In this document: positions 5,409-54,628 of the stretch, piece by piece
Layout: each line of letters starts with the position of its first letter
How positions within the stretch are numbered: position 1 is the first letter of the stretch
Assembly: GCA_040752795.1 (NCBI GenBank)
Contig: JBFMGH010000608.1
Location: 110,325-174,324 of the forward strand
Direction of reading: 5' to 3'
Source of the DNA: Cyanobacteriota bacterium
GTDB taxonomy: Bacteria; Cyanobacteriota; Vampirovibrionia; JBFMGH01
Length of the DNA: 64,000 nucleotides
Notes under the pieces: generated by a model
What the model was told of the DNA's origin: nothing
What the model saw: only the letters and a program-made list of their open reading frames with translations
Databases searched by the model: none
Program-made: the position numbers and the translations under genes

Positions 5409-6536
5409 ATGAAACCCGGAACCGGAGGGACAATATGGGACTCAAACAAACCTGAAGAAGAACTAAGTGAATTTGAACTCTTACTTAGAAAATATGACTA
5501 CAATTTCAATCGTGGGGATGTTATTAAGGGTATTGTAGTTGGTTATGAATCAAATGGTCTTTTAATTGATGTTGGAGCTAAAACAAATGCCTTTGTACCT
5601 CCAAGAGAAGTGGCTCCGGAAAAAGTTGATAAACTACAAGATTACATAGAAATAGGCGAAGAGAGAGATTTTTATATACTTAAAGAAGAAGATGACGATG
5701 GGCAAATAACACTTTCTCTTAAGCGTGTTGCTCTTGCGTACAGCTGGTCTAAACTTGAAGAACTTAAGAATGAAGATGCTGTTGTTGAGTGTGAAGTAAT
5801 GTCTGTCGTTAAAGGTGGAATTCTGGTTGATGTTATGGGCCTAAGAGGCTTTGTTCCAGCAAGTCACCTGAGAGTTAGATCATCTGATGCTATGGTCGGA
5901 CAGGTATTGCCATTAAAGATTTTATCTATAGAACCAAAGAAAAACAACCTTATAATGTCTCATAGAAAAGTAGTTTCAGAGCAACAGGCAGAGCAAAGAA
6001 AAGATACTTTTGAAAAACTTGAAGTCGGTGAATCTGTAATGGGTGAAGTGGTTAGATTAGCTGATTTCGGAGCCTTTATAGATATAGGTGGAATAGATGG
6101 GTTGCTTCCTCTTTCACAAATGTCCTGGCGATGGGTTGATCACCCTTCGGACATATTAAGCGTGGGTGATCGTATAAAAGTTGAAGTCATTGGTATAGAT
6201 TATGAGAAACAACGAGTAAGCCTTAGCTTAAAGAGCCAGCAACCAGATCCATGGGAAGAAATTTCAAAAATGTATAGTGTCGGGCAGAAACTTCCAGGAA
6301 AAGTCACCAGAATAAAACATTTTGGGGCATTCGTTGAGGTTTATCCCGGTGTTGAGGCTTTATTGCCTAGCAAAGAAGTTATTGAGTATGAGAAAGATAA
6401 CAATACAAAACTTTCTTTAGGGCAAGAAATTACTACTACTATAATCAGGTTTGTTCCGGAAGATAGAAGAATGAGCCTCAGTTATACTGGCCAGCTTGAT
6501 GAAGATGAAGAATTACCTCCACCACCAATGGATTAA
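5409..6536 (+). CDS. rpsA: 30S ribosomal protein S1, short 3-4 S1-domain form
   Basis: Repeated S1 domains (GDVIKGIVVGYESNGLLIDVG..., GESVMGEVVRLADFGAFIDIG..., GQKLPGKVTRIKHFGAFVEV). GGAGG RBS at 5392-5396. Confidence 0.8.
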   Translation: MKPGTGGTIWDSNKPEEELSEFELLLRKYDYNFNRGDVIKGIVVGYESNGLLIDVGAKTNAFVPPREVAPEKVDKLQDYIEIGEERDFYILKEEDDDGQITLSLKRVALAYSWSKLEELKNEDAVVECEVMSVVKGGILVDVMGLRGFVPASHLRVRSSDAMVGQVLPLKILSIEPKKNNLIMSHRKVVSEQQAEQRKDTFEKLEVGESVMGEVVRLADFGAFIDIGGIDGLLPLSQMSWRWVDHPSDILSVGDRIKVEVIGIDYEKQRVSLSLKSQQPDPWEEISKMYSVGQKLPGKVTRIKHFGAFVEVYPGVEALLPSKEVIEYEKDNNTKLSLGQEITTTIIRFVPEDRRMSLSYTGQLDEDEELPPPPMD

Positions 6537-6541
6537 ATAAT

Positions 6542-7162
6542 TTAATTGCCTTGTTTAGAGGCATTATAAAGTATATTAATTCCAAATGGCTTTAAAGCTT
6601 CAGATAGTTTATATATTGGTAGCCCTACAATGTTATTATAGCAACCGTTTATACCTGTTATAAAAGTGCTTGCGTAGCCCTGTATTGCATAAGCTCCGGC
6701 TTTATCCATTGGCTCGCCAGTTTTTATGTAATTGATAATTTCTTCATCACTTAATTCTTTAAAGATTACCCGGGATGAAACACTATCTACATAAGTTCTT
6801 TTGAGTTCCCTGTCAATTATTGCTATACCTGATATTACACTATGTGATCGACCACTTAAAATAGAAAGCATTCTATGGGCGTCATTATCATCTTCGGGTT
6901 TTCCTAAAATCATATTATCTATTGTAACAGTAGTATCAGAGCCAATAACTATTGCAGGATAATCAAGCTTTTTAGCTATATCTTCAGCTTTTTTTAATGC
7001 CAGTAACCTTACTATTTCATCTGGTGTAAGTTCATTATTCTCTATTGTTTCATCAATATCTGATGGTATAATTTTAAAGGATAGGCCCAGTTTCTCTAAT
7101 AGCTCTTTTCTTCTTGGTGAAGCTGATGCTAGAACCAGTATCTTAGAATTTATTTCTGACAT
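6542..7162 (-). CDS. maf: Maf-like nucleoside triphosphate pyrophosphatase (septum formation protein Maf)
   Basis: N-terminal ILVLASASPRRKELLEKLGLSFKI followed by the Maf-family core. Confidence 0.85.
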   Translation of the reverse strand: MSEINSKILVLASASPRRKELLEKLGLSFKIIPSDIDETIENNELTPDEIVRLLALKKAEDIAKKLDYPAIVIGSDTTVTIDNMILGKPEDDNDAHRMLSILSGRSHSVISGIAIIDRELKRTYVDSVSSRVIFKELSDEEIINYIKTGEPMDKAGAYAIQGYASTFITGINGCYNNIVGLPIYKLSEALKPFGINILYNASKQGN

Positions 7163-7194
7163 TTCCTTCCCTTTAAATTTATCAGCTTTGCAGA

Positions 7195-7458
7195 TTATTT
7201 AAATATTTCTATATCATAGTATACATTATTATTGCTGTCATAAGCTGTTATATCATTGGAATATTCATCTTCAAGCTCTAATATCAGATTGTTTTCATTG
7301 GATAATTCAATAGTTACAGTGCCACTATCTATGTCAACTTCAGCACTATAGCAGTCACCTGTGTCATGGTTACAGGCTTCGGCATCATAATCTTGAGCTG
7401 AGGCCGGATTAAAGCTTATTAACAGTATAAATAGTAAATAAATAAAGAGTTTATTCAT
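7195..7458 (-). CDS. Small secreted acidic protein, hypothetical
   Basis: N-terminal signal peptide MNKLFIYLLFILLISFNPASA. 87 aa, D/E/N-rich. Confidence 0.45.
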   Translation of the reverse strand: MNKLFIYLLFILLISFNPASAQDYDAEACNHDTGDCYSAEVDIDSGTVTIELSNENNLILELEDEYSNDITAYDSNNNVYYDIEIFK

Positions 7459-7459
7459 A

Positions 7460-8632
7460 TTATTTTACCATCGTTTTAACAGATTCTTCGTAGATTCTTT
7501 TAACATCAGCTTTATTTACAGATGCTGCATTTATATCAACACAGAATTGCATAGTTTTAAATGTATCTTCAGTCAGACGATCTAAGTCTTGAACGGATGC
7601 ACCTAGTTCTGTTATATCACGATTTAGTTCTAATGGTTCATAAAAATCTTTTAAAGTTGTAAGAACTTTTTCTAAGGCATTAGGATCGTCTTTAGCTATA
7701 TTTGATCCCATTAAATTAGCCATATTAATATATTTATCTTTTTCTGAATTGAAGTTGTGTCTGACAATAGCTATTGATATGCTGGCAAGAGCCTCTCCAT
7801 GTGCGCAATCATAGTGACCACTTAATGGGTGTGCCATTGCATGAATTAGTCCTGTGCCAGCCAGTTGAATTGCCATGCCTCCAAGTGTATTGGCAATTGC
7901 CATATTCTCTCTGGCTTCTTTATCCTTGCCGTTTTTATAAGCTCTATGTAGATATTTAGCCACAAGTTCTATAGCTTTTTCACAATAAAGATCTGATATA
8001 GGATTAGCTATCCTTGATGTATAAGCTTCTATGGCATGAAAAAATACGTCAATACCTACAGAAGCAGTTGGCCTTGGCGGCATTGGTTCTGTAAGATCAG
8101 TATCTATAATTGATTCAACAGGAAACATACATTCAAAACCGATCCCTGGTTTTTCATTTGTTTCAGGGTTTGTTATTACAGCATATGTATTGGCTTCACT
8201 GCCTGTGCCTGATGTGGTTGTAATGCAAATAACCGGCAAAGCTTTTTTAGGAGGGTTTGTGGTGCCAATATAGTCCCAAGCATTTCTTCCATCTTTAGCG
8301 ATAAGAGCTATTACTTTGCTTGAATCCATTGGGCTTCCGCCACCAAGGCCAATAACAACATCGCATTTTTCTTTTTTAGCAAGCTCTCCACCTTCATCTA
8401 TTGTTGTTGATCTTGGGTTAGGTTCAATGTTATCGTACACAATATAATTAAGCCCTTCTGCTTTTAAAGAATTTATTACTTTGTCAAGGGCTCCTATTTT
8501 TTTTGAACTACCTTTTCCGGTAACAATAATTGCTTTCTTGCCATATTTCTTTGCTATTTTACCTGTGTCATTAATTTTACCAGCGCCAAAATGTAGTTTT
8601 GTAGGTATAAAATGTTGAAAATTGCCTGTCAT
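7460..8632 (-). CDS. Iron-containing (group III) alcohol dehydrogenase
   Basis: GGGSPMD motif plus the His-rich metal-binding segment HAMAHPLSGHYDCAHG. RBS GAAGGAAG upstream. Confidence 0.85.
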   Translation of the reverse strand: MTGNFQHFIPTKLHFGAGKINDTGKIAKKYGKKAIIVTGKGSSKKIGALDKVINSLKAEGLNYIVYDNIEPNPRSTTIDEGGELAKKEKCDVVIGLGGGSPMDSSKVIALIAKDGRNAWDYIGTTNPPKKALPVICITTTSGTGSEANTYAVITNPETNEKPGIGFECMFPVESIIDTDLTEPMPPRPTASVGIDVFFHAIEAYTSRIANPISDLYCEKAIELVAKYLHRAYKNGKDKEARENMAIANTLGGMAIQLAGTGLIHAMAHPLSGHYDCAHGEALASISIAIVRHNFNSEKDKYINMANLMGSNIAKDDPNALEKVLTTLKDFYEPLELNRDITELGASVQDLDRLTEDTFKTMQFCVDINAASVNKADVKRIYEESVKTMVK

Positions 8633-44017: not shown

Positions 44018-44776
44018 TTAAATATTTATAGCGTATTTTTTAAATATGCTTTTGGCTTTTGGCGAAGAAAGGAATTGATTGAACTTATATATAGCTGAAT
44101 TACTATCTGCTTCTATGTTAATACCGCTTGAATAAATAATAGGCTTATGCAATGTAGGGTTTAAATAGTCTGATATTTGTATGAAAGATCTTTTTGCAAA
44201 GCTACAATACATAATGCCTCCATCATAATTTCCTCTAGAAACTGTAGAGGCTATGTCATTATTATTTTCAAAAAAAATAATCTTTTTAGCTGCTTTTTCC
44301 CAGAGGTTTAAATTACTTAATGCTTCTTTAGTATGTCTCCCTAGTGAGGTTATAGAAGGGTTACTTACAATTAAGCCTTTCATTACACTTGTTTTAGGGT
44401 ACAGCATAAATGCTCTCATCTCTATACTTTTTTTTACAACAACACAGAGTTGATCTTTTCCAAGTTCTTTAATGCTTTTTTTATTTATAAAATTCTGTTT
44501 TGAGAGCTCTTCCAGTGTATATTTATTATCAAGAAAGATCATATCAATAAAGGTATCAGGGCTTTGGAATATTTCAACAAGTTCACTTTCTTTACCTGTA
44601 ATAAAGTTGATTATTATATTAGGGTTATCTTCTTCAAAAGAGCTTTTGAGGTCTTGTGCCAGGGGTTTTAAGTCTTTTATTGTGCCTATGATGATTTCTT
44701 CAGATCTACAGGCTGAAATAAAAATCATTGAAGATATAATAAGGCTTGCTATATATGTAATTATAGTTTTATACAT
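44018..44776 (-). CDS. Periplasmic substrate-binding-like protein (possibly ModA/WtpA-type), hypothetical
   Basis: N-terminal signal with a Cys (lipoprotein-like), an α/β composition, and the length of a type-II periplasmic-binding fold. Weak similarity only. Confidence 0.4.
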   Translation of the reverse strand: MYKTIITYIASLIISSMIFISACRSEEIIIGTIKDLKPLAQDLKSSFEEDNPNIIINFITGKESELVEIFQSPDTFIDMIFLDNKYTLEELSKQNFINKKSIKELGKDQLCVVVKKSIEMRAFMLYPKTSVMKGLIVSNPSITSLGRHTKEALSNLNLWEKAAKKIIFFENNNDIASTVSRGNYDGGIMYCSFAKRSFIQISDYLNPTLHKPIIYSSGINIEADSNSAIYKFNQFLSSPKAKSIFKKYAINI

Positions 44777-47866: not shown

Positions 47867-48085
47867 CTAGTCTTGAATAATAGATTCAATCATTGATACT
47901 ATTCTCTCGTGGCTATTGTCTATTTCTTCAGCAGGTATTTCTTCTTCAATTTTGCTGACTAGTAAATCTACATTAATGTATTCAATATTTTTAAGCTTTT
48001 GAGTGGTATCTTTGAGTTGATTTTGATAATAAGCACGGAGAACTTTAATTATAGACTGAACAATTATATAATTTGGCTGGTTCAT
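47867..48085 (-). CDS. Hypothetical small acidic protein, 72 aa
   Basis: ORF only. No RBS checked. Low confidence. Confidence 0.3.
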   Translation of the reverse strand: MNQPNYIIVQSIIKVLRAYYQNQLKDTTQKLKNIEYINVDLLVSKIEEEIPAEEIDNSHERIVSMIESIIQD

Positions 48086-48981: not shown

Positions 48982-49211
48982 AATCGCTTACTCCAGTTGC
49001 TTATTTTGAATCCCTAATATACTATGCCCCTAATATCATAATAATAACTATATTAACAAAATTCTACATCCAGCAAATAATGTAAAATTTATTTAATGAC
49101 TGATTATGTTAAAATTTGATTTTGATTGAGTTAAAAATATTTAAAGGATAACGTTTTGAATATCTTTATTAAGATGTTTTATATTTTGTTAATAGTTGTT
49201 ATTGTTTCAGG

Positions 49212-50078
49212 TTGTGGCCCAATTTGAATTTCATTGAGTTATTAAAAGTTAACCTTAAAATAGCAAGTTTATACTTACAAGGTTATCAAGTAGAAACCTC
49301 AGATTTTAGAAGAAGCTATAAATATTTGGCTTCTAGTTATGATGATGAATGGTTTGTTTATCTTAGCTCAATTACAGAAGATGTTTTATCTAAAATTTCA
49401 GACCAGAAACCTAAATATATTTTAGACTTAGGCTGTGGTACGGGCGGTGCAACCTTAAAGCTAAAATATATGTTCCCAGAGGCTAAAATTATAGGAATGG
49501 ATTGCTCTAAACACATGCTGAGACAGGCCAGACCTAAATTAGGTTCTGATAGTGTTATACTTTTTAGAGATACTATGGAGAGAGGTCTAACAAAACTTTC
49601 AGATAATCAGTTTGACCTGATTACATGTGCTTGGAGCTTGGGATATGCTAGGCATAAAAAAGTTTATAAAGAGCTTTATCGTGTTTTATCAAAAAATGGT
49701 TATTTATTAACGCTTACTAATAAAAGAGATACTCTGAAAGCAGTCCAAAAAACCATGAAATATACTATGTATAACCACTATAAAAGTCTAAAGAAATTAC
49801 CTCTTCATAAATTCCCTGAAAATAAAGAATATTTGTTAAAAAAATTTGGTAAACGGTTTAAAGAAATTGATTATGGAGAAGGTAATTTTTCTATTGACCT
49901 GACTAACAAGCAATCTATTTTAGACTGGCTTTTAAATACAGGTATATTAGCTGGTTATGAATATGTTCTTGATCTTAAGAATGATAAAAAGTGCAGAAAA
50001 ACTTTTGAAGATTATATAAAATCAAATTTTAAAGATGTTACGCATGAATATATGTGGATATTACTCCAGAAACAGTAG
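49212..50078 (+). CDS. Class I SAM-dependent methyltransferase
   Basis: ILDLGCGTGGATLKL (motif I), then D (post I) and motif II. TTG start. A 6-nt gap to the next gene suggests an operon. Confidence 0.7.
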   Translation: MWPNLNFIELLKVNLKIASLYLQGYQVETSDFRRSYKYLASSYDDEWFVYLSSITEDVLSKISDQKPKYILDLGCGTGGATLKLKYMFPEAKIIGMDCSKHMLRQARPKLGSDSVILFRDTMERGLTKLSDNQFDLITCAWSLGYARHKKVYKELYRVLSKNGYLLTLTNKRDTLKAVQKTMKYTMYNHYKSLKKLPLHKFPENKEYLLKKFGKRFKEIDYGEGNFSIDLTNKQSILDWLLNTGILAGYEYVLDLKNDKKCRKTFEDYIKSNFKDVTHEYMWILLQKQ

Positions 50079-50084
50079 TATTTA

Positions 50085-51377
50085 ATGTTTGATAAGTTTA
50101 AAAAGCTTTATACCCTCTATAAAATTCTCCGGACAAAGGAAATAACTACTGTTCCAATAGAAGTTTTGAATAAATTACCAGCTAAAAGATTGCCAGATAA
50201 AATTTTTGATGAAATAAAACAAAAAAAAAGTTTTATACCATTTAAAACCTTAGTTTATATGTATAACTGGCTTAAAAATGAAACAATTACGCAAATGTTA
50301 GATGGTCGTTATGTTATAAATGCATTTTTGCCACCAATGCCTGGTAAGGGGCATGATAGAATGTTTGTAAATATGCTTTCTGGCAGAAAAATTAGCCCTG
50401 TATCTGCGTACATTGCTATAACATCTAAGTGTTGCTACAATTGCTGGCATTGCAGTTATAAAAATCGTTCAGGAGAAGATTTAACCTATAATCAAATATC
50501 TGATTTAATTGACCAGCTATTGTCTATAGGTACAAGTATTATAGGTATTACAGGTGGAGAACCAACTTTAAGAGAAGATCTAGTTGAAATAATTGAAAAA
50601 GCCTCAGCCGAAACAGACTGCATGCTATTTACTAACGGGGTTAATTTTACAGAAGATCTTGCTATAAAACTTAAAAAGGCAGGTCTATGGGCTGTTGCTA
50701 TAAGTGTAGATAGTCATATACCGGATATTCATAATAAAAAGAGGTCTAATGAAAAGGCATATGAAACTGCAATAAGGGCTATAAAACTTAGTAATAAGTA
50801 TTCATTTTATACAATGCTTACTACTGTTCCAGATATGGAGATACTTAAGGATGGTACATATAAAGAAATTTACAAACTAGCAACAGATTTACAGGTTGAT
50901 GAGTATAGAATAGTTGAACCAATGCCTACAGGAAAACTGATTGATTGTAATAATTGCTTTTTAGATAATACTCTTAGAGATGAAATAAAAGATTTTCATA
51001 AGCAAATAAACAAAAGAAATCTTAAACCAAAGGTGTGTTCATTTGCTCTGGTTGAGTCTGGAGAATATTTTGGTTGTTGTGCTGGCACTATGCACCTTTT
51101 TATAGATAGTTTTGGAAATGTTTGCCCCTGTGACTTTACACCATTGAGTTTTGGCAATATTAAAGAAATCCCACTTAAAGAGGCCTGGAAAAGACTTAAT
51201 GAAGCCTTTAAACTGCCACGTTATAATTGTTTTATTCAGGAAAATTACAATATTATTCGAAAATATTATAAGGGAACTCTTCCAATTAGCTTTGAAAATA
51301 TTGAAGAAATCTTTAAAGAGGTTCCAGAATCTGATTTACCTGCTTATTTTAAACATGTTTTATCACGTAGAAATTAA
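50085..51377 (+). CDS. Radical SAM protein with a C-terminal SPASM/twitch-like Cys cluster and a ~100-aa N-terminal extension
   Basis: CCYNCWHC (CxxxCxxC-like). GGEPTL. C-terminal cysteines CNNC ... C..........CC.............CPC. Confidence 0.75.
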   Translation: MFDKFKKLYTLYKILRTKEITTVPIEVLNKLPAKRLPDKIFDEIKQKKSFIPFKTLVYMYNWLKNETITQMLDGRYVINAFLPPMPGKGHDRMFVNMLSGRKISPVSAYIAITSKCCYNCWHCSYKNRSGEDLTYNQISDLIDQLLSIGTSIIGITGGEPTLREDLVEIIEKASAETDCMLFTNGVNFTEDLAIKLKKAGLWAVAISVDSHIPDIHNKKRSNEKAYETAIRAIKLSNKYSFYTMLTTVPDMEILKDGTYKEIYKLATDLQVDEYRIVEPMPTGKLIDCNNCFLDNTLRDEIKDFHKQINKRNLKPKVCSFALVESGEYFGCCAGTMHLFIDSFGNVCPCDFTPLSFGNIKEIPLKEAWKRLNEAFKLPRYNCFIQENYNIIRKYYKGTLPISFENIEEIFKEVPESDLPAYFKHVLSRRN

Positions 51378-54064: not shown

Positions 54065-54628
54065 TTGGATAATAAATGGTTAGAAATTAGAGAAGCATCC
54101 GAAGTTTTAGACGTAGAACTTGAATATTTGTGTGATCAAGTCATAAATGGAACTGTTAAAACCTCAACATGTGATGATCTTTTAATGATTGATGTATTAT
54201 CACTACCAGATTTCTCTGAAGTATCTTATGACCGTAATGCAATGTCTGTAGAAACTGTAAGGAAAGAACTTGAGAAATTTAAGGTTGAATATGCCTGGCT
54301 AAAATCTGAAAACTTGATGAATGCAAAGCTTATAGAAGATTATCATGTTAGATTTAGCGAATTAAAACGTATACAAACTGAGCTTATTGAAGTTATTAAT
54401 CATCAGTCTGAAACAATAAGAGCTTTAAAGGGTTATAATTCTATAACAAGATGCAACCAGGAGACTCAGTTAGAAACAATGCCTCAAGCTAAACGGGTAA
54501 ATACAGGCTTTTCTCTATGGATGTTTTTACCTATTTTAGGGCTCTCTATGGCTGCTATAGTTGAAATATTTAAGGTCCAGCATATCTATAGTTTTGATGA
54601 CTTTCTTAGATACATAGGTATGCTGTAG
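54065..54628 (+). CDS. Hypothetical coiled-coil protein with a C-terminal transmembrane anchor
   Basis: ORF with a predicted C-terminal TM segment (LWMFLPILGLSMAAIV). TTG start; uncertain. Confidence 0.4.
   Translation: MDNKWLEIREASEVLDVELEYLCDQVINGTVKTSTCDDLLMIDVLSLPDFSEVSYDRNAMSVETVRKELEKFKVEYAWLKSENLMNAKLIEDYHVRFSELKRIQTELIEVINHQSETIRALKGYNSITRCNQETQLETMPQAKRVNTGFSLWMFLPILGLSMAAIVEIFKVQHIYSFDDFLRYIGML

Follow-up and report, generated by a model that had tools for sequence, protein, structure and literature searches.

The locus lies within the window, by which we mean the whole 64,000-nucleotide stretch of DNA analysed here, and is best read as a three-gene cassette composed of a mini-ORF, a methyltransferase (MT), and a radical SAM/SPASM enzyme (rSAM). 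The two longer ORFs listed in an earlier note on this DNA (49212–50078 and 50085–51377, both on the + strand) are present and 6 nt apart, and the pair is flanked, as described there, by genes for an M23 peptidase, hom, and thrC. The 17-codon ORF reported at 49174–49227, encoding MFYILLIVVIVSGCGPI followed by a stop, is present as well. Its frame is open from 49135, i.e. upstream of ATG 49174, and a 23-aa version beginning at TTG 49156 falls in the same length class as the peptides of relatives (23–25 aa). The cassette and its 5′ region comprise the following features:

48993..49088, strand unassigned: conserved stretch of the intergenic region that separates the cassette from the divergent M23 gene, function putative
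49143..49148, + strand: Shine-Dalgarno-like AAAGGA, 7 nt 5′ of TTG 49156, read from the sequence, function putative
49156..49227, + strand: mini-ORF for a precursor-like peptide, 23 aa from TTG 49156 (MNIFIKMFYILLIVVIVSGCGPI, then stop) or 17 aa from the alternative ATG 49174
49224..50078, + strand: class I SAM-dependent MT, 284 aa, whose TTG start overlaps the mini-ORF stop (TTGA)
50085..51377, + strand: rSAM with a partial SPASM/twitch domain, 430 aa
50085..50396, + strand: family-specific N-terminal domain of the rSAM (aa 1–104), conserved in 58 homologs
50430..50453, + strand: CxxxCxxC motif (C116, C120, C123), invariant in alignments A1 and A3
51036..51230, + strand: predicted auxiliary-cluster cysteine array (C318, C331, C347, C349, C382; invariant or almost so in the alignments) with invariant H337

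For the MT, the most likely start is TTG 49224 rather than 49212, since this yields 284 aa, the length that gene callers give most close homologs. Its TTGA overlap with the mini-ORF stop implies translational coupling. At the position equivalent to AAAGGA, relatives carry GAGGT or GAGAAA. Further upstream, columns 12–107 of a four-genome alignment (A2) are near-invariant across the intergenic block, and the strongest promoter-like candidate also lies there (TTAACA, 17 nt, AATAAT at 49053–49081 on the + strand, fitting at 10 of 12 positions). A promoter and terminator scan of the region gave no more matches than shuffled sequence, and an Rfam search of the cassette 5′ region and the intergenic block returned no riboswitch and no known RNA family. 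The impression that the MT-rSAM pair had been inserted into a housekeeping context was not borne out: both synteny in the lineage and GC content are normal, which rules out a recent insertion. Among the reference-genome contigs scanned for the cassette, no locus exceeded 46% identity, so that the window's lineage is either absent from, or masked in, that collection.

The assignment of the first ORF to the class I SAM methyltransferases held up, with matches to Pfam Methyltransf_25/31/11 at 61–64 bits and both the Rossmann-fold domain and the GxGxG SAM motif of that class. Family invariants are G72xG74, D93, W137, G140-Y141, N166, W235, and H274, with no invariant Cys. A BioC, Tam, or UbiE identity was rejected since every score lies under the curated NCBIfam cutoff (cutoffs in parentheses: BioC, 74.5 bits (185); Tam, 64.9 (297); UbiE/MenG, 62.8 (158)). 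The AF2 model of the MT has a pLDDT of 86.8, and the fold search was flat across N-, O-, S-, and C-methyltransferases, so the methyl acceptor is not assignable. ArsM-type MTs carry conserved As-binding cysteines; an ArsS/ArsL plus ArsM pair, as in arsenosugar or arsinothricin systems, was likewise rejected because no Cys is conserved in at least 90% of 51 cassette MTs and ArsM models score 27–33 bits.

The second ORF is, as predicted, a radical SAM enzyme (PF04055 Radical_SAM, 77.3 bits; cutoff 29.5), and its proposed CxxxCxxC cluster motif was confirmed by alignment. Conserved cysteines are also found in the C-terminal region where a SPASM/twitch array had been noted, and the SPASM domain PF13186 matches aa 331–370 at 34 bits (cutoff 21.5). 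A full SPASM motif contains seven Cys; only five are conserved here, which indicates a partial SPASM or twitch-like domain. Similarly, the N-terminal extension of ~100 aa exists and is conserved in all homologs, with invariant N79, F81, P83, P84, and P86, but its suggested likeness to an RRE was not upheld. No PqqD match was obtained up to E=10 for seven N-terminal domains, and the lack of any Pfam match together with a mainly helical predicted model led us to reject an RRE. The enzyme does not match a well-defined housekeeping subfamily, one half of the outcome that would have undone the earlier proposal: all 25 listed NCBIfam families score far under cutoff, and the best matches include NirJ2 (107 bits; cutoff 500), AhbD (106 bits; cutoff 500), and MoaA. 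Its closest solved relatives are the RiPP maturases SkfB, SuiB, and PqqE.

The anticipated co-occurrence of the two enzymes extends over many phyla, the genes being adjacent in 70–73 of 77 evaluable reference loci; 70 of 80 loci have them side by side in the same orientation. In-frame MT-rSAM fusions were seen in P0097 and L079 only (L-numbers denote distant reference loci), most of the long rSAM ORFs called at the loci being out-of-frame artefacts of high-GC DNA. An accessory polytopic membrane-protein family without a Pfam family occurs in 38 loci; in PVC-group bacteria it is part of the cassette and is sometimes fused to a periplasmic beta-propeller-like domain. No homolog was found within the 64 kb of the window, and this protein was therefore rejected as a universal fourth cassette gene. 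Neither a PqqD/MftB partner nor a peptidase nor any other gene of the pathway was found in the window.

The mini-ORF had been described as a leader or precursor-like peptide, or else chance. Of these options, chance can be dropped and the precursor-like reading is strengthened by conservation of the peptide both in the lineage and at distant loci. The window's peptide consists of an n-region with K6, a hydrophobic core, the lipobox V-S-G-C, and the tail C-G-P-I before a TGA stop, and all six lineage genomes encode a peptide of 23–25 aa ending in (S/T)GCGPI and a stop. Substitutions in the tail codons within the lineage (TGT/TGC, GGC/GGT/GGA, and CCA/CCC/CCG) leave the residues encoded by the mini-ORF unchanged but alter those read in the MT frame. 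The possibility that the mini-ORF is a frameshifted MT N-terminus was rejected because the ORFs of other phyla end in TAA, TAG, or TGA with variable spacing to the MT start; in the window, the +1 frame meets a stop within a few codons, which also counts against it.

Beyond the lineage, a small ORF with a CGP tail is found in the cassette at 54 of 76 evaluable distant loci, ranging from 33 to 73% GC. These peptides have a median length of 27 aa (overall precursor range, 17–39 aa) and a shared architecture that runs from an n-region containing K/R through a hydrophobic core to a canonical lipobox and ends in C-G-P-[I/V/L/M]-stop, which abuts the MT start. The last residue is I in 30 loci, V in 14, L in nine, and M in one. 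Between them, the loci use all four Gly, all four Pro, and both Cys codons, and the conservation of the mini-ORF is at the amino-acid level. It is also far beyond chance: of 80 distant loci, 51 have CGPx-stop where the MT begins, whereas 2 × 1.03 Mb of background yielded 11 unrelated matches, none with a signal peptide or hydrophobic leader. The small-ORF stop typically abuts or overlaps the MT start (23 NTGA overlaps, besides junctions such as TGATG or TAATG), and the presence of the ORF follows the rSAM tree. Carriers include Vampirovibrionia, PVC-group bacteria, Elusimicrobia, gut anaerobes, Melainabacteria, human-gut taxa such as Victivallis, and gut ‘Alphaproteobacteria’, one protein cluster of which holds 314 member sequences; the family as a whole has roughly 1,000 members. 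Cultured carriers of the full cassette are Oligosphaera ethanolica DSM 24202 (L070) and Pontiellaceae strain B1224 (L057); in L070 the small ORF spans 6907–6987, its TGA is overlapped by the MT ATG at 6984, and the rSAM begins near 7980. Annotation has likely missed the gene because it is shorter than gene callers accept; none of ten family peptides looked up in a 15-billion-protein collection was present there. The recurrence in several phyla of a mini-ORF with a signal-like leader and a four-residue tail ahead of the MT-rSAM pair suggests a hitherto undescribed family of membrane peptides tailored by enzymes.

Sequence features of the leader are those of a lipoprotein (SPII) signal, defined here as a positive n-region, an uncharged h-region, and the lipobox [LVI][ASTVI][GAS]C. 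The window's peptide has all three in K6, its uncharged core, and V-S-G-C. Across the family, all 54 of the peptides compared have G, A, or S at lipobox position −1, while S, A, and T predominate at −2, and L, A, V, and I at −3. The last 15 positions are free of charged residues in 55 of 56 peptides, most N-termini are net positive, and 48 of 56 match a PROSITE-type lipobox pattern. In a profile search, the only matches came from unrelated lipoproteins and covered their signal and lipobox segments. As a separate observation, the window's genome encodes a solute-binding protein with a classical lipoprotein N-terminus (...MIFISAC).

A precursor-like gene beside candidate modifying enzymes, the arrangement that characterizes RiPP loci, is what we observed, with the small ORF abutting the MT start in 51 loci and in the cassette in 54 of 76. 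From these sequence patterns, we consider it probable that the rSAM and the MT act on the mini-ORF peptide as their substrate. In the pathway that we propose, ribosomes would first translate the peptide and then yield the MT through termination-reinitiation at the observed TTGA overlap, an arrangement that would leave peptide in excess over MT. In the cytoplasm, the rSAM, with its CxxxCxxC motif and auxiliary cluster, would abstract hydrogen from the C-G-P-[I/V/L/M] tail while its helical N-terminal domain holds the hydrophobic leader, and the MT would methylate the peptide. Candidate chemistries pair methylation of the C-terminal carboxyl or of the thiol with an epimerisation, a cross-link, or an oxidation in the tail. 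By analogy with the DAG-RiPPs discussed below, the leader and its lipobox would then carry the tailored peptide into the Lgt/LspA pathway, giving a modified tetrapeptide anchored through a diacylglyceryl group at the periplasmic side of the membrane; the cassette of PVC-group bacteria would add the accessory polytopic membrane protein, which the window's lineage does without. For the complete sequence of events, in which the enzymes modify the peptide and the lipoprotein pathway then lipidates it, our confidence stops a little short of even.

The best-surviving alternative accepts that the peptide is an enzyme substrate but not that it becomes a lipoprotein: the hydrophobic part would serve as leader or anchor only, and the invariant Cys would be the target of S-methylation, thioether cross-linking, or an anSME-like conversion to formylglycine within C-x-P-x. 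This seems unlikely, as positions −3 to −1 fit an independent lipobox consensus that a pure recognition motif need not follow, and the layout of the n- and h-regions corresponds to an export signal. The anSME-like option is further weakened by the absence of the anSME NCBIfam model from the top matches. The sequence match to anSME is weak (E=8e-5), and the system differs from anSME in having no Arg at +4, a four-residue tail rather than a sulfatase as target, and an MT partner.

A second alternative, which we regard as decidedly unlikely, casts the mini-ORF product as a small membrane subunit or anchor that recruits or regulates the MT and the rSAM, with a lipid or a membrane-bound small molecule as the substrate of both. 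The peptide indeed amounts to little more than one TM helix, polytopic membrane proteins occur in the 38 loci mentioned above, and in several loci of the peptide-less clades one lies directly 5′ of the MT. A lipid substrate would also suit the lipid-modifying GDGT-MAS/Tes found among the sequence and fold neighbours of the rSAM, and the resemblance of the MT to BioC, PE N-methyltransferase, and UbiE-type enzymes, whose acceptors are lipids or acyl carriers. An anchor, however, would need neither an invariant four-residue C-terminal tail with a free carboxylate nor a lipobox; no TM segment is predicted in the MT or in the rSAM, and the closest rSAM relatives are peptide maturases.

It is very unlikely that the mini-ORF acts solely as a cis-acting leader peptide controlling MT and rSAM expression through coupling or arrest. 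The position of its stop at the MT start and the weak TTG start of the MT in the window's lineage fit such a role, as do the small-ORF copies preceding other cassette genes in L023 and L004, and a GP-x-stop ending recalls arrest- or termination-sensitive leaders. Yet the signal composition is maintained from 33 to 73% GC although it has no role in the ribosome tunnel, and the peptides are too short for force-sensing arrest of the SecM/MifM type, which depends on Sec or YidC. Moreover, some loci have a gap of ~20 nt and separate start signals for the small ORF and the MT (L009), and the copies in L023 are multiple and identical, as is typical of precursor genes. Finally, an ordinary housekeeping pair for heme, cofactor, or tRNA/rRNA modification with an incidental mini-ORF is scarcely credible, despite the syntenic position of the cassette among housekeeping genes in the lineage and the nature of the best NCBIfam matches, since NirJ2, AhbD, and MoaA score four- to fivefold under their cutoffs and the conservation and placement of the peptide cannot be incidental.

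The reading in which the peptide is modified and then lipidated has its nearest precedent in the DAG-RiPPs, hybrids of RiPPs and lipoproteins that MNIO enzymes produce (chryseobasin-like DybA/DybH, NedA; PNAS 2026, PMC13056109). DAG-RiPP precursors bear SPII signals and undergo cytoplasmic modification before the lipoprotein pathway triacylates them; they were mined as ORFs of 50–160 aa beside MNIO genes, and the term ‘radical SAM’ is absent from that paper (PMC13056109). Our cassette likewise pairs an SPII-type precursor with enzymes that lack signal peptides and are cytoplasmic in silico, and the lipobox Cys would by analogy become the lipidated N-terminus. In contrast, the enzymes are an rSAM and an MT rather than an MNIO, and the precursor is 17–39 aa long with three residues after the lipobox Cys. 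Our best reading, by analogy, is of a cassette that would parallel the MNIO-based DAG-RiPPs, with a radical SAM enzyme in place of the MNIO and a core of four residues. Our search for literature combining radical SAM with lipobox, SPII, or lipoprotein signals found nothing relevant.

Other known systems share individual traits with the cassette. The MftA/MftC and PqqA/PqqE pairs each combine a short peptide with an rSAM/SPASM enzyme that works on its extreme C-terminus. As in mycofactocin and PQQ biosynthesis, the precursor here is very short, has conserved residues at or near its C-terminus, and adjoins an rSAM/SPASM gene, but its tail lacks an aromatic residue, its leader is a hydrophobic signal peptide, and the PqqD/MftB and peptidase genes are missing from the window. 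Scores against the SkfB, PqqE, and mycofactocin maturase NCBIfam models are far under cutoff (60.8 (300), 67.5 (381), and 66.7 (265) bits, respectively), and the rSAM differs from SkfB, SuiB, and PqqE in its helical N-terminal domain without a PqqD/RRE signal, its five auxiliary Cys, and the new motif C-G-P-Phi. LptM (YifL) is, like the mini-ORF product, a tiny envelope lipoprotein candidate starting with C-G, and the family peptides reach 19.4 bits against its model over the signal and first residues; this is below the cutoff of 27.7, and the mini-ORF product further differs in its four-residue mature part and its dedicated modifying enzymes.

Cross-phylum comparison of this kind can recover ORFs of 20–30 codons 5′ of ‘orphan’ radical SAM genes. 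If the proposed pathway is correct, a widespread three-gene cassette would perform an unknown post-translational chemistry on a four-residue core, the RiPPs known to use the lipoprotein pathway would extend from MNIO to radical SAM enzymes, and the peptide would offer a minimal natural substrate for the requirements of Lgt and LspA. We tentatively suggest, as a possibility somewhat below even, that the product may be the smallest known ribosomal lipoprotein, a DAG-anchored Cys-Gly-Pro-Ile/Val/Leu tailored by the rSAM and the MT, which would found a new radical-SAM branch of lipidated RiPPs and serve as a conserved envelope component or signal. Since triacylated short lipopeptides are classical TLR2 ligands, a tailored lipopeptide of gut bacteria could matter for host interaction.

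Two adjacent genes in the window encode a class I SAM methyltransferase (MT) and a 430-aa radical SAM/SPASM enzyme (rSAM), lying in the same direction and 6 nt apart as the earlier note had described, and Pfam profiles matched the domains of both:

49212-50078, forward strand: MT ORF; Methyltransf_25, 31 and 11 at 61-64 bits
50085-51377, forward strand: rSAM ORF; PF04055 at 77 bits, SPASM PF13186 at 34 bits

The proposed CxxxCxxC-like cluster and C-terminal cysteine array were borne out in alignments of homologs, with C116-x3-C120-x2-C123 invariant and five more cysteines (C318, C331, C347, C349, and C382) invariant or nearly so. Both enzymes fall outside every named subfamily; no curated NCBIfam cutoff was reached by rSAM (best NirJ2, 107 bits, and AhbD, 106 bits; cutoff 500 for each) or by MT (best BioC, 74.5 bits, cutoff 185, and Tam, 64.9 bits, cutoff 297). 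Among proteins of solved structure, SkfB (E = 3.7e-25) was closest to rSAM in sequence, with MoaA, BlsE, and PqqE next. The N-terminal extension of ~100 residues before the core is present and conserved family-wide (N79, F81, P83, P84, and P86 invariant). Its suggested identity as an RRE, a PqqD-like leader-binding domain, is unsupported, since profile searches found neither a Pfam nor a PqqD signal and the confident AlphaFold model (pLDDT 92.3) predicts five helices, the fourth and fifth separated by a minimal hairpin.

MT and rSAM form a conserved pair. Among 80 distant loci from species-representative genomes, an MT homolog was present in 73 (three of the seven others are truncated by a contig end) and lay directly upstream of rSAM on the same strand in 70, while P0097 and L079 are in-frame MT-rSAM fusions. 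The link first proposed between the two genes thus holds, since no NCBIfam cutoff was reached that would make them a housekeeping pair, MT adjoins rSAM in most loci, and fusions exist. The >1,000 rSAM homologs include full-length proteins, 39-47% identical, from Lentisphaerae, Verrucomicrobia, Kiritimatiellae, Planctomycetes, Desulfobacteraceae, and Chitinispirillum, as well as a gut "Azospirillum sp. 51_20" cluster of 314 member sequences. Across 185,579 species-representative genomes, the best locus was at most 46% identical to the window rSAM; relatives at 63-95%, one of them named Vampirovibrionia, came from metagenome assemblies, and the window's lineage seems absent from, or masked in, the species-representative collection. 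Some loci depart from the pair. Victivallis vadensis DSM 14823 carries a lone rSAM homolog (L035:7977-9287) that includes the family's N-terminal domain and is preceded by a 478-aa ORF (6377-7813) unrelated to MT; MT and mini-ORF are not adjacent, and may lie elsewhere in that genome or be missing. In two further loci with neither MT nor mini-ORF, a CPBP/Rce1-like intramembrane protease (PF02517, E = 1.7e-10; L064:1538-2182 and L066:1448-2092) sits immediately 5' of the rSAM homolog.

The pair is flanked, as first stated, by an M23 peptidase gene upstream and hom and thrC downstream, and the order TauE, 72-aa ORF, M23, MT, rSAM, hom, thrC is kept in five relatives from the same lineage (rSAM 63-70% identical). 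This shared order, together with a GC content of 28.5-30% against 30-34% in the neighbours, rules out the earlier impression that the pair looks inserted. Other features of the neighbourhood are:

44018-44776, reverse strand: solute-binding protein SBP_bac_11; N-terminus MYKTIITYIASLIISSMIFISAC, a classical lipoprotein signal whose lipobox reads ISAC
47867-48085, reverse strand: 72-aa ORF between TauE and M23; no Pfam match
48993-49088: conserved intergenic block of ~100 nt, in the spacer that separates the mini-ORF from the divergent M23 gene
54065-54628, forward strand: 187-aa ORF downstream of thrC; no Pfam match, hydrophobic C-terminal segment

Four genomes that share only about 65% protein identity keep the intergenic block nearly unchanged. 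The best sigma-70-like match (49053-49081) lies inside it, no Rfam family matched, and the block could represent either a shared regulatory region or an RNA of unknown type. The 72-aa ORF is called as a gene and keeps its position in every relative examined, occurring twice in L084 (3321-3539 and 3690-3908), and counterparts of the 187-aa ORF (185-199 aa) occupy the same position in L081, L083, and L084.

The 17-codon ORF first described at 49174-49227, overlapping the MT start, is present and belongs to a real gene. In an alignment of the region upstream of MT from four genomes, its 3' end is near-invariant within an otherwise diverged spacer, and the peptide is encoded in all six lineage genomes:

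window: MNIFIKMFYILLIVVIVSGCGPI
L081: MTLNYIFKSVVFTFIVVLISGCGPI
L083: MLFTYLVKLIFVLAVIVIVSGCGPI
L084: MKYLDSLKILLIVMLIVVITGCGPI
L085: MRNLYKVVLIMFVVAIVTGCGPI
L086: MNYLNSLKISLIVMLIVVITGCGPI

The last codons vary (TGT/TGC, GGC/GGT/GGA, CCA/CCC/CCG), and these changes fall at third positions in the mini-ORF frame and at first, non-synonymous positions in the MT frame; selection acts at the amino-acid level. The window frame is open from 49135, and a TTG start at 49156, preceded by AAAGGA, gives a peptide of 23 aa whose n-region contains a Lys, as that of L085 does. Its stop TGA overlaps TTG 49224 (TTGA), the start used by gene callers for 284-aa MT homologs.

When small ORFs around the MT start were sought in the 80 distant loci, with a Cys close to the C-terminus as the sole requirement, this architecture turned up repeatedly, for example:

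L001: MKKFLVILALIIIISACGPI
L003 (Elusimicrobia): MRNPWFLLLLALAAFAGCGPI
L005 (Victivallis): MLKIAKFVVLAMFAVAAILLTPGCGPL
L024 (Desulfobacteraceae): MNNQIWYFSLITGMILTSLILNGCGPI
L070 (Oligosphaera ethanolica DSM 24202; sequence verified): MSSKLTKIFLLLAVLELLILSGCGPI

C-G-P-x-stop occurred at the MT start in 51 of the 80, and in-cassette copies in L004, L023, and L079 bring the total to 54 of 76 evaluable loci, which disposes of chance. In L023, MKKYLTLVAVIAVISLFILSGCGPL appears twice, identically (2171-2185 and 2850-2864), ahead of membrane-protein genes rather than MT, and the L004 copy (5845-5859) likewise precedes a membrane-protein or other cassette gene. The remaining CGPx-stop matches numbered 11 in 2 x 1.03 Mb, none with a hydrophobic leader and one ending in I, V, L, or M. 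The 54 peptides analyzed, a set that includes the window and the three of its relatives retrieved first, have a median length of 27 aa, with mostly L, A, V, or I at position -3, mostly S, A, or T at -2, and G (48), A (5), or S (1) at -1, followed by C, G, P, and a final I (30), V (14), L (9), or M (1) before the stop. Invariance of C-G-P is partly by construction, as ORFs were retrieved with that pattern; no variant tails appeared in the earlier Cys-only scan or in a scan of loci lacking the motif. All four Gly, all four Pro, and both Cys codons are used in these tails, in loci of 33-73% GC, so it is the peptide, rather than an RNA motif, that is under selection. The lipobox-like VSGC first noticed at the mini-ORF end proved a family trait, a PROSITE-type lipobox pattern matching 48 of 56 peptides, and the last 15 positions are uncharged in 55 of 56. 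Profile searches with the peptides gave only sub-cutoff matches, confined to the signal and lipobox portions of unrelated lipoprotein families, and none of ten peptides tested was found among about 15 billion predicted proteins. In a neighbor-joining tree of rSAM proteins, small-ORF presence follows phylogeny: the loci that lack it fall into an outgroup clade and a clade made up mainly of planctomycetes, L032 being the only locus without it in the large clade containing the window.

In 38 loci, the pair has a same-strand neighbour from a poorly conserved family of polytopic membrane proteins (126-540 aa); the small ORF is present in 37 of these loci:

L036:9272-9886, L023:1440-4502, L054:5329-6906, and L067:5483-6967: example members

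In the longer members, a C-terminal extension shows a sub-threshold hint of PD40 repeats. This family is accessory rather than core, since no homolog was found in the window. Several peptide-less loci have a membrane-protein gene immediately 5' of MT in place of the small ORF. The planctomycete clade without the CGP mini-ORF encodes a Cys-free membrane protein (140-213 aa) with a conserved ITPLRLLxPT motif, ending exactly at the MT start, which may be an alternative partner or substrate:

L038:1260-1706, L043:317-763, L062:1860-2501, and L068:6678-7100: Cys-free membrane protein

We infer that the peptide is the substrate of MT and rSAM. This most simply accounts for four facts: the mini-peptide is translated and conserved across phyla, with four invariant residues as its tail; its gene is obligately placed next to, and apparently coupled in translation to, those of two enzymes that use SAM and are themselves found fused; it co-evolves with rSAM; and rSAM is akin to peptide maturases. 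The tailored peptide would then be passed to Lgt and LspA, modification preceding lipoprotein handling, as suggested by a leader that fits a lipoprotein consensus derived from unrelated proteins and by classical lipoproteins in the same genome; judging from the SBP_bac_11 signal, the organism appears to use this pathway. A precedent exists in DAG-RiPPs, RiPP-lipoprotein hybrids modified by MNIO enzymes, whose route to Lgt and LspA was shown by experiment in 2026 (PMC13056109). That study makes no mention of radical SAM enzymes and could not have found the present family because it mined only 50-160 aa ORFs beside MNIO genes (PMC13056109); here, in contrast, rSAM and MT would act on a peptide of median 27 aa, with lipidation proposed by analogy. 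Our literature search found no other publication on such a cassette.

A serious alternative is that the peptide is a substrate without lipidation and the Cys itself is the target, of S-methylation, thioether formation, or anSME-like oxidation in its C-x-P context. The peptide could instead be a membrane anchor or subunit for enzymes acting on a lipid, or a cis-regulatory leader, or the two enzymes an ordinary housekeeping pair, but these three are jointly disfavoured by the peptide's lipobox and signal character, by its invariant C-terminus, which is free, by the repeated copies seen in L023, and by the lack of any housekeeping subfamily match.

What the earlier note had glimpsed is real, and more interesting than first described. 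The cassette appears to represent a previously undescribed form of rSAM-dependent modification of ribosomal peptides, and a coupling to the lipoprotein pathway is most likely, by analogy with DAG-RiPPs. Its core is, to our knowledge, the shortest. It is widespread in anaerobic diderm bacteria, gut taxa among them, and is directly testable in vitro.
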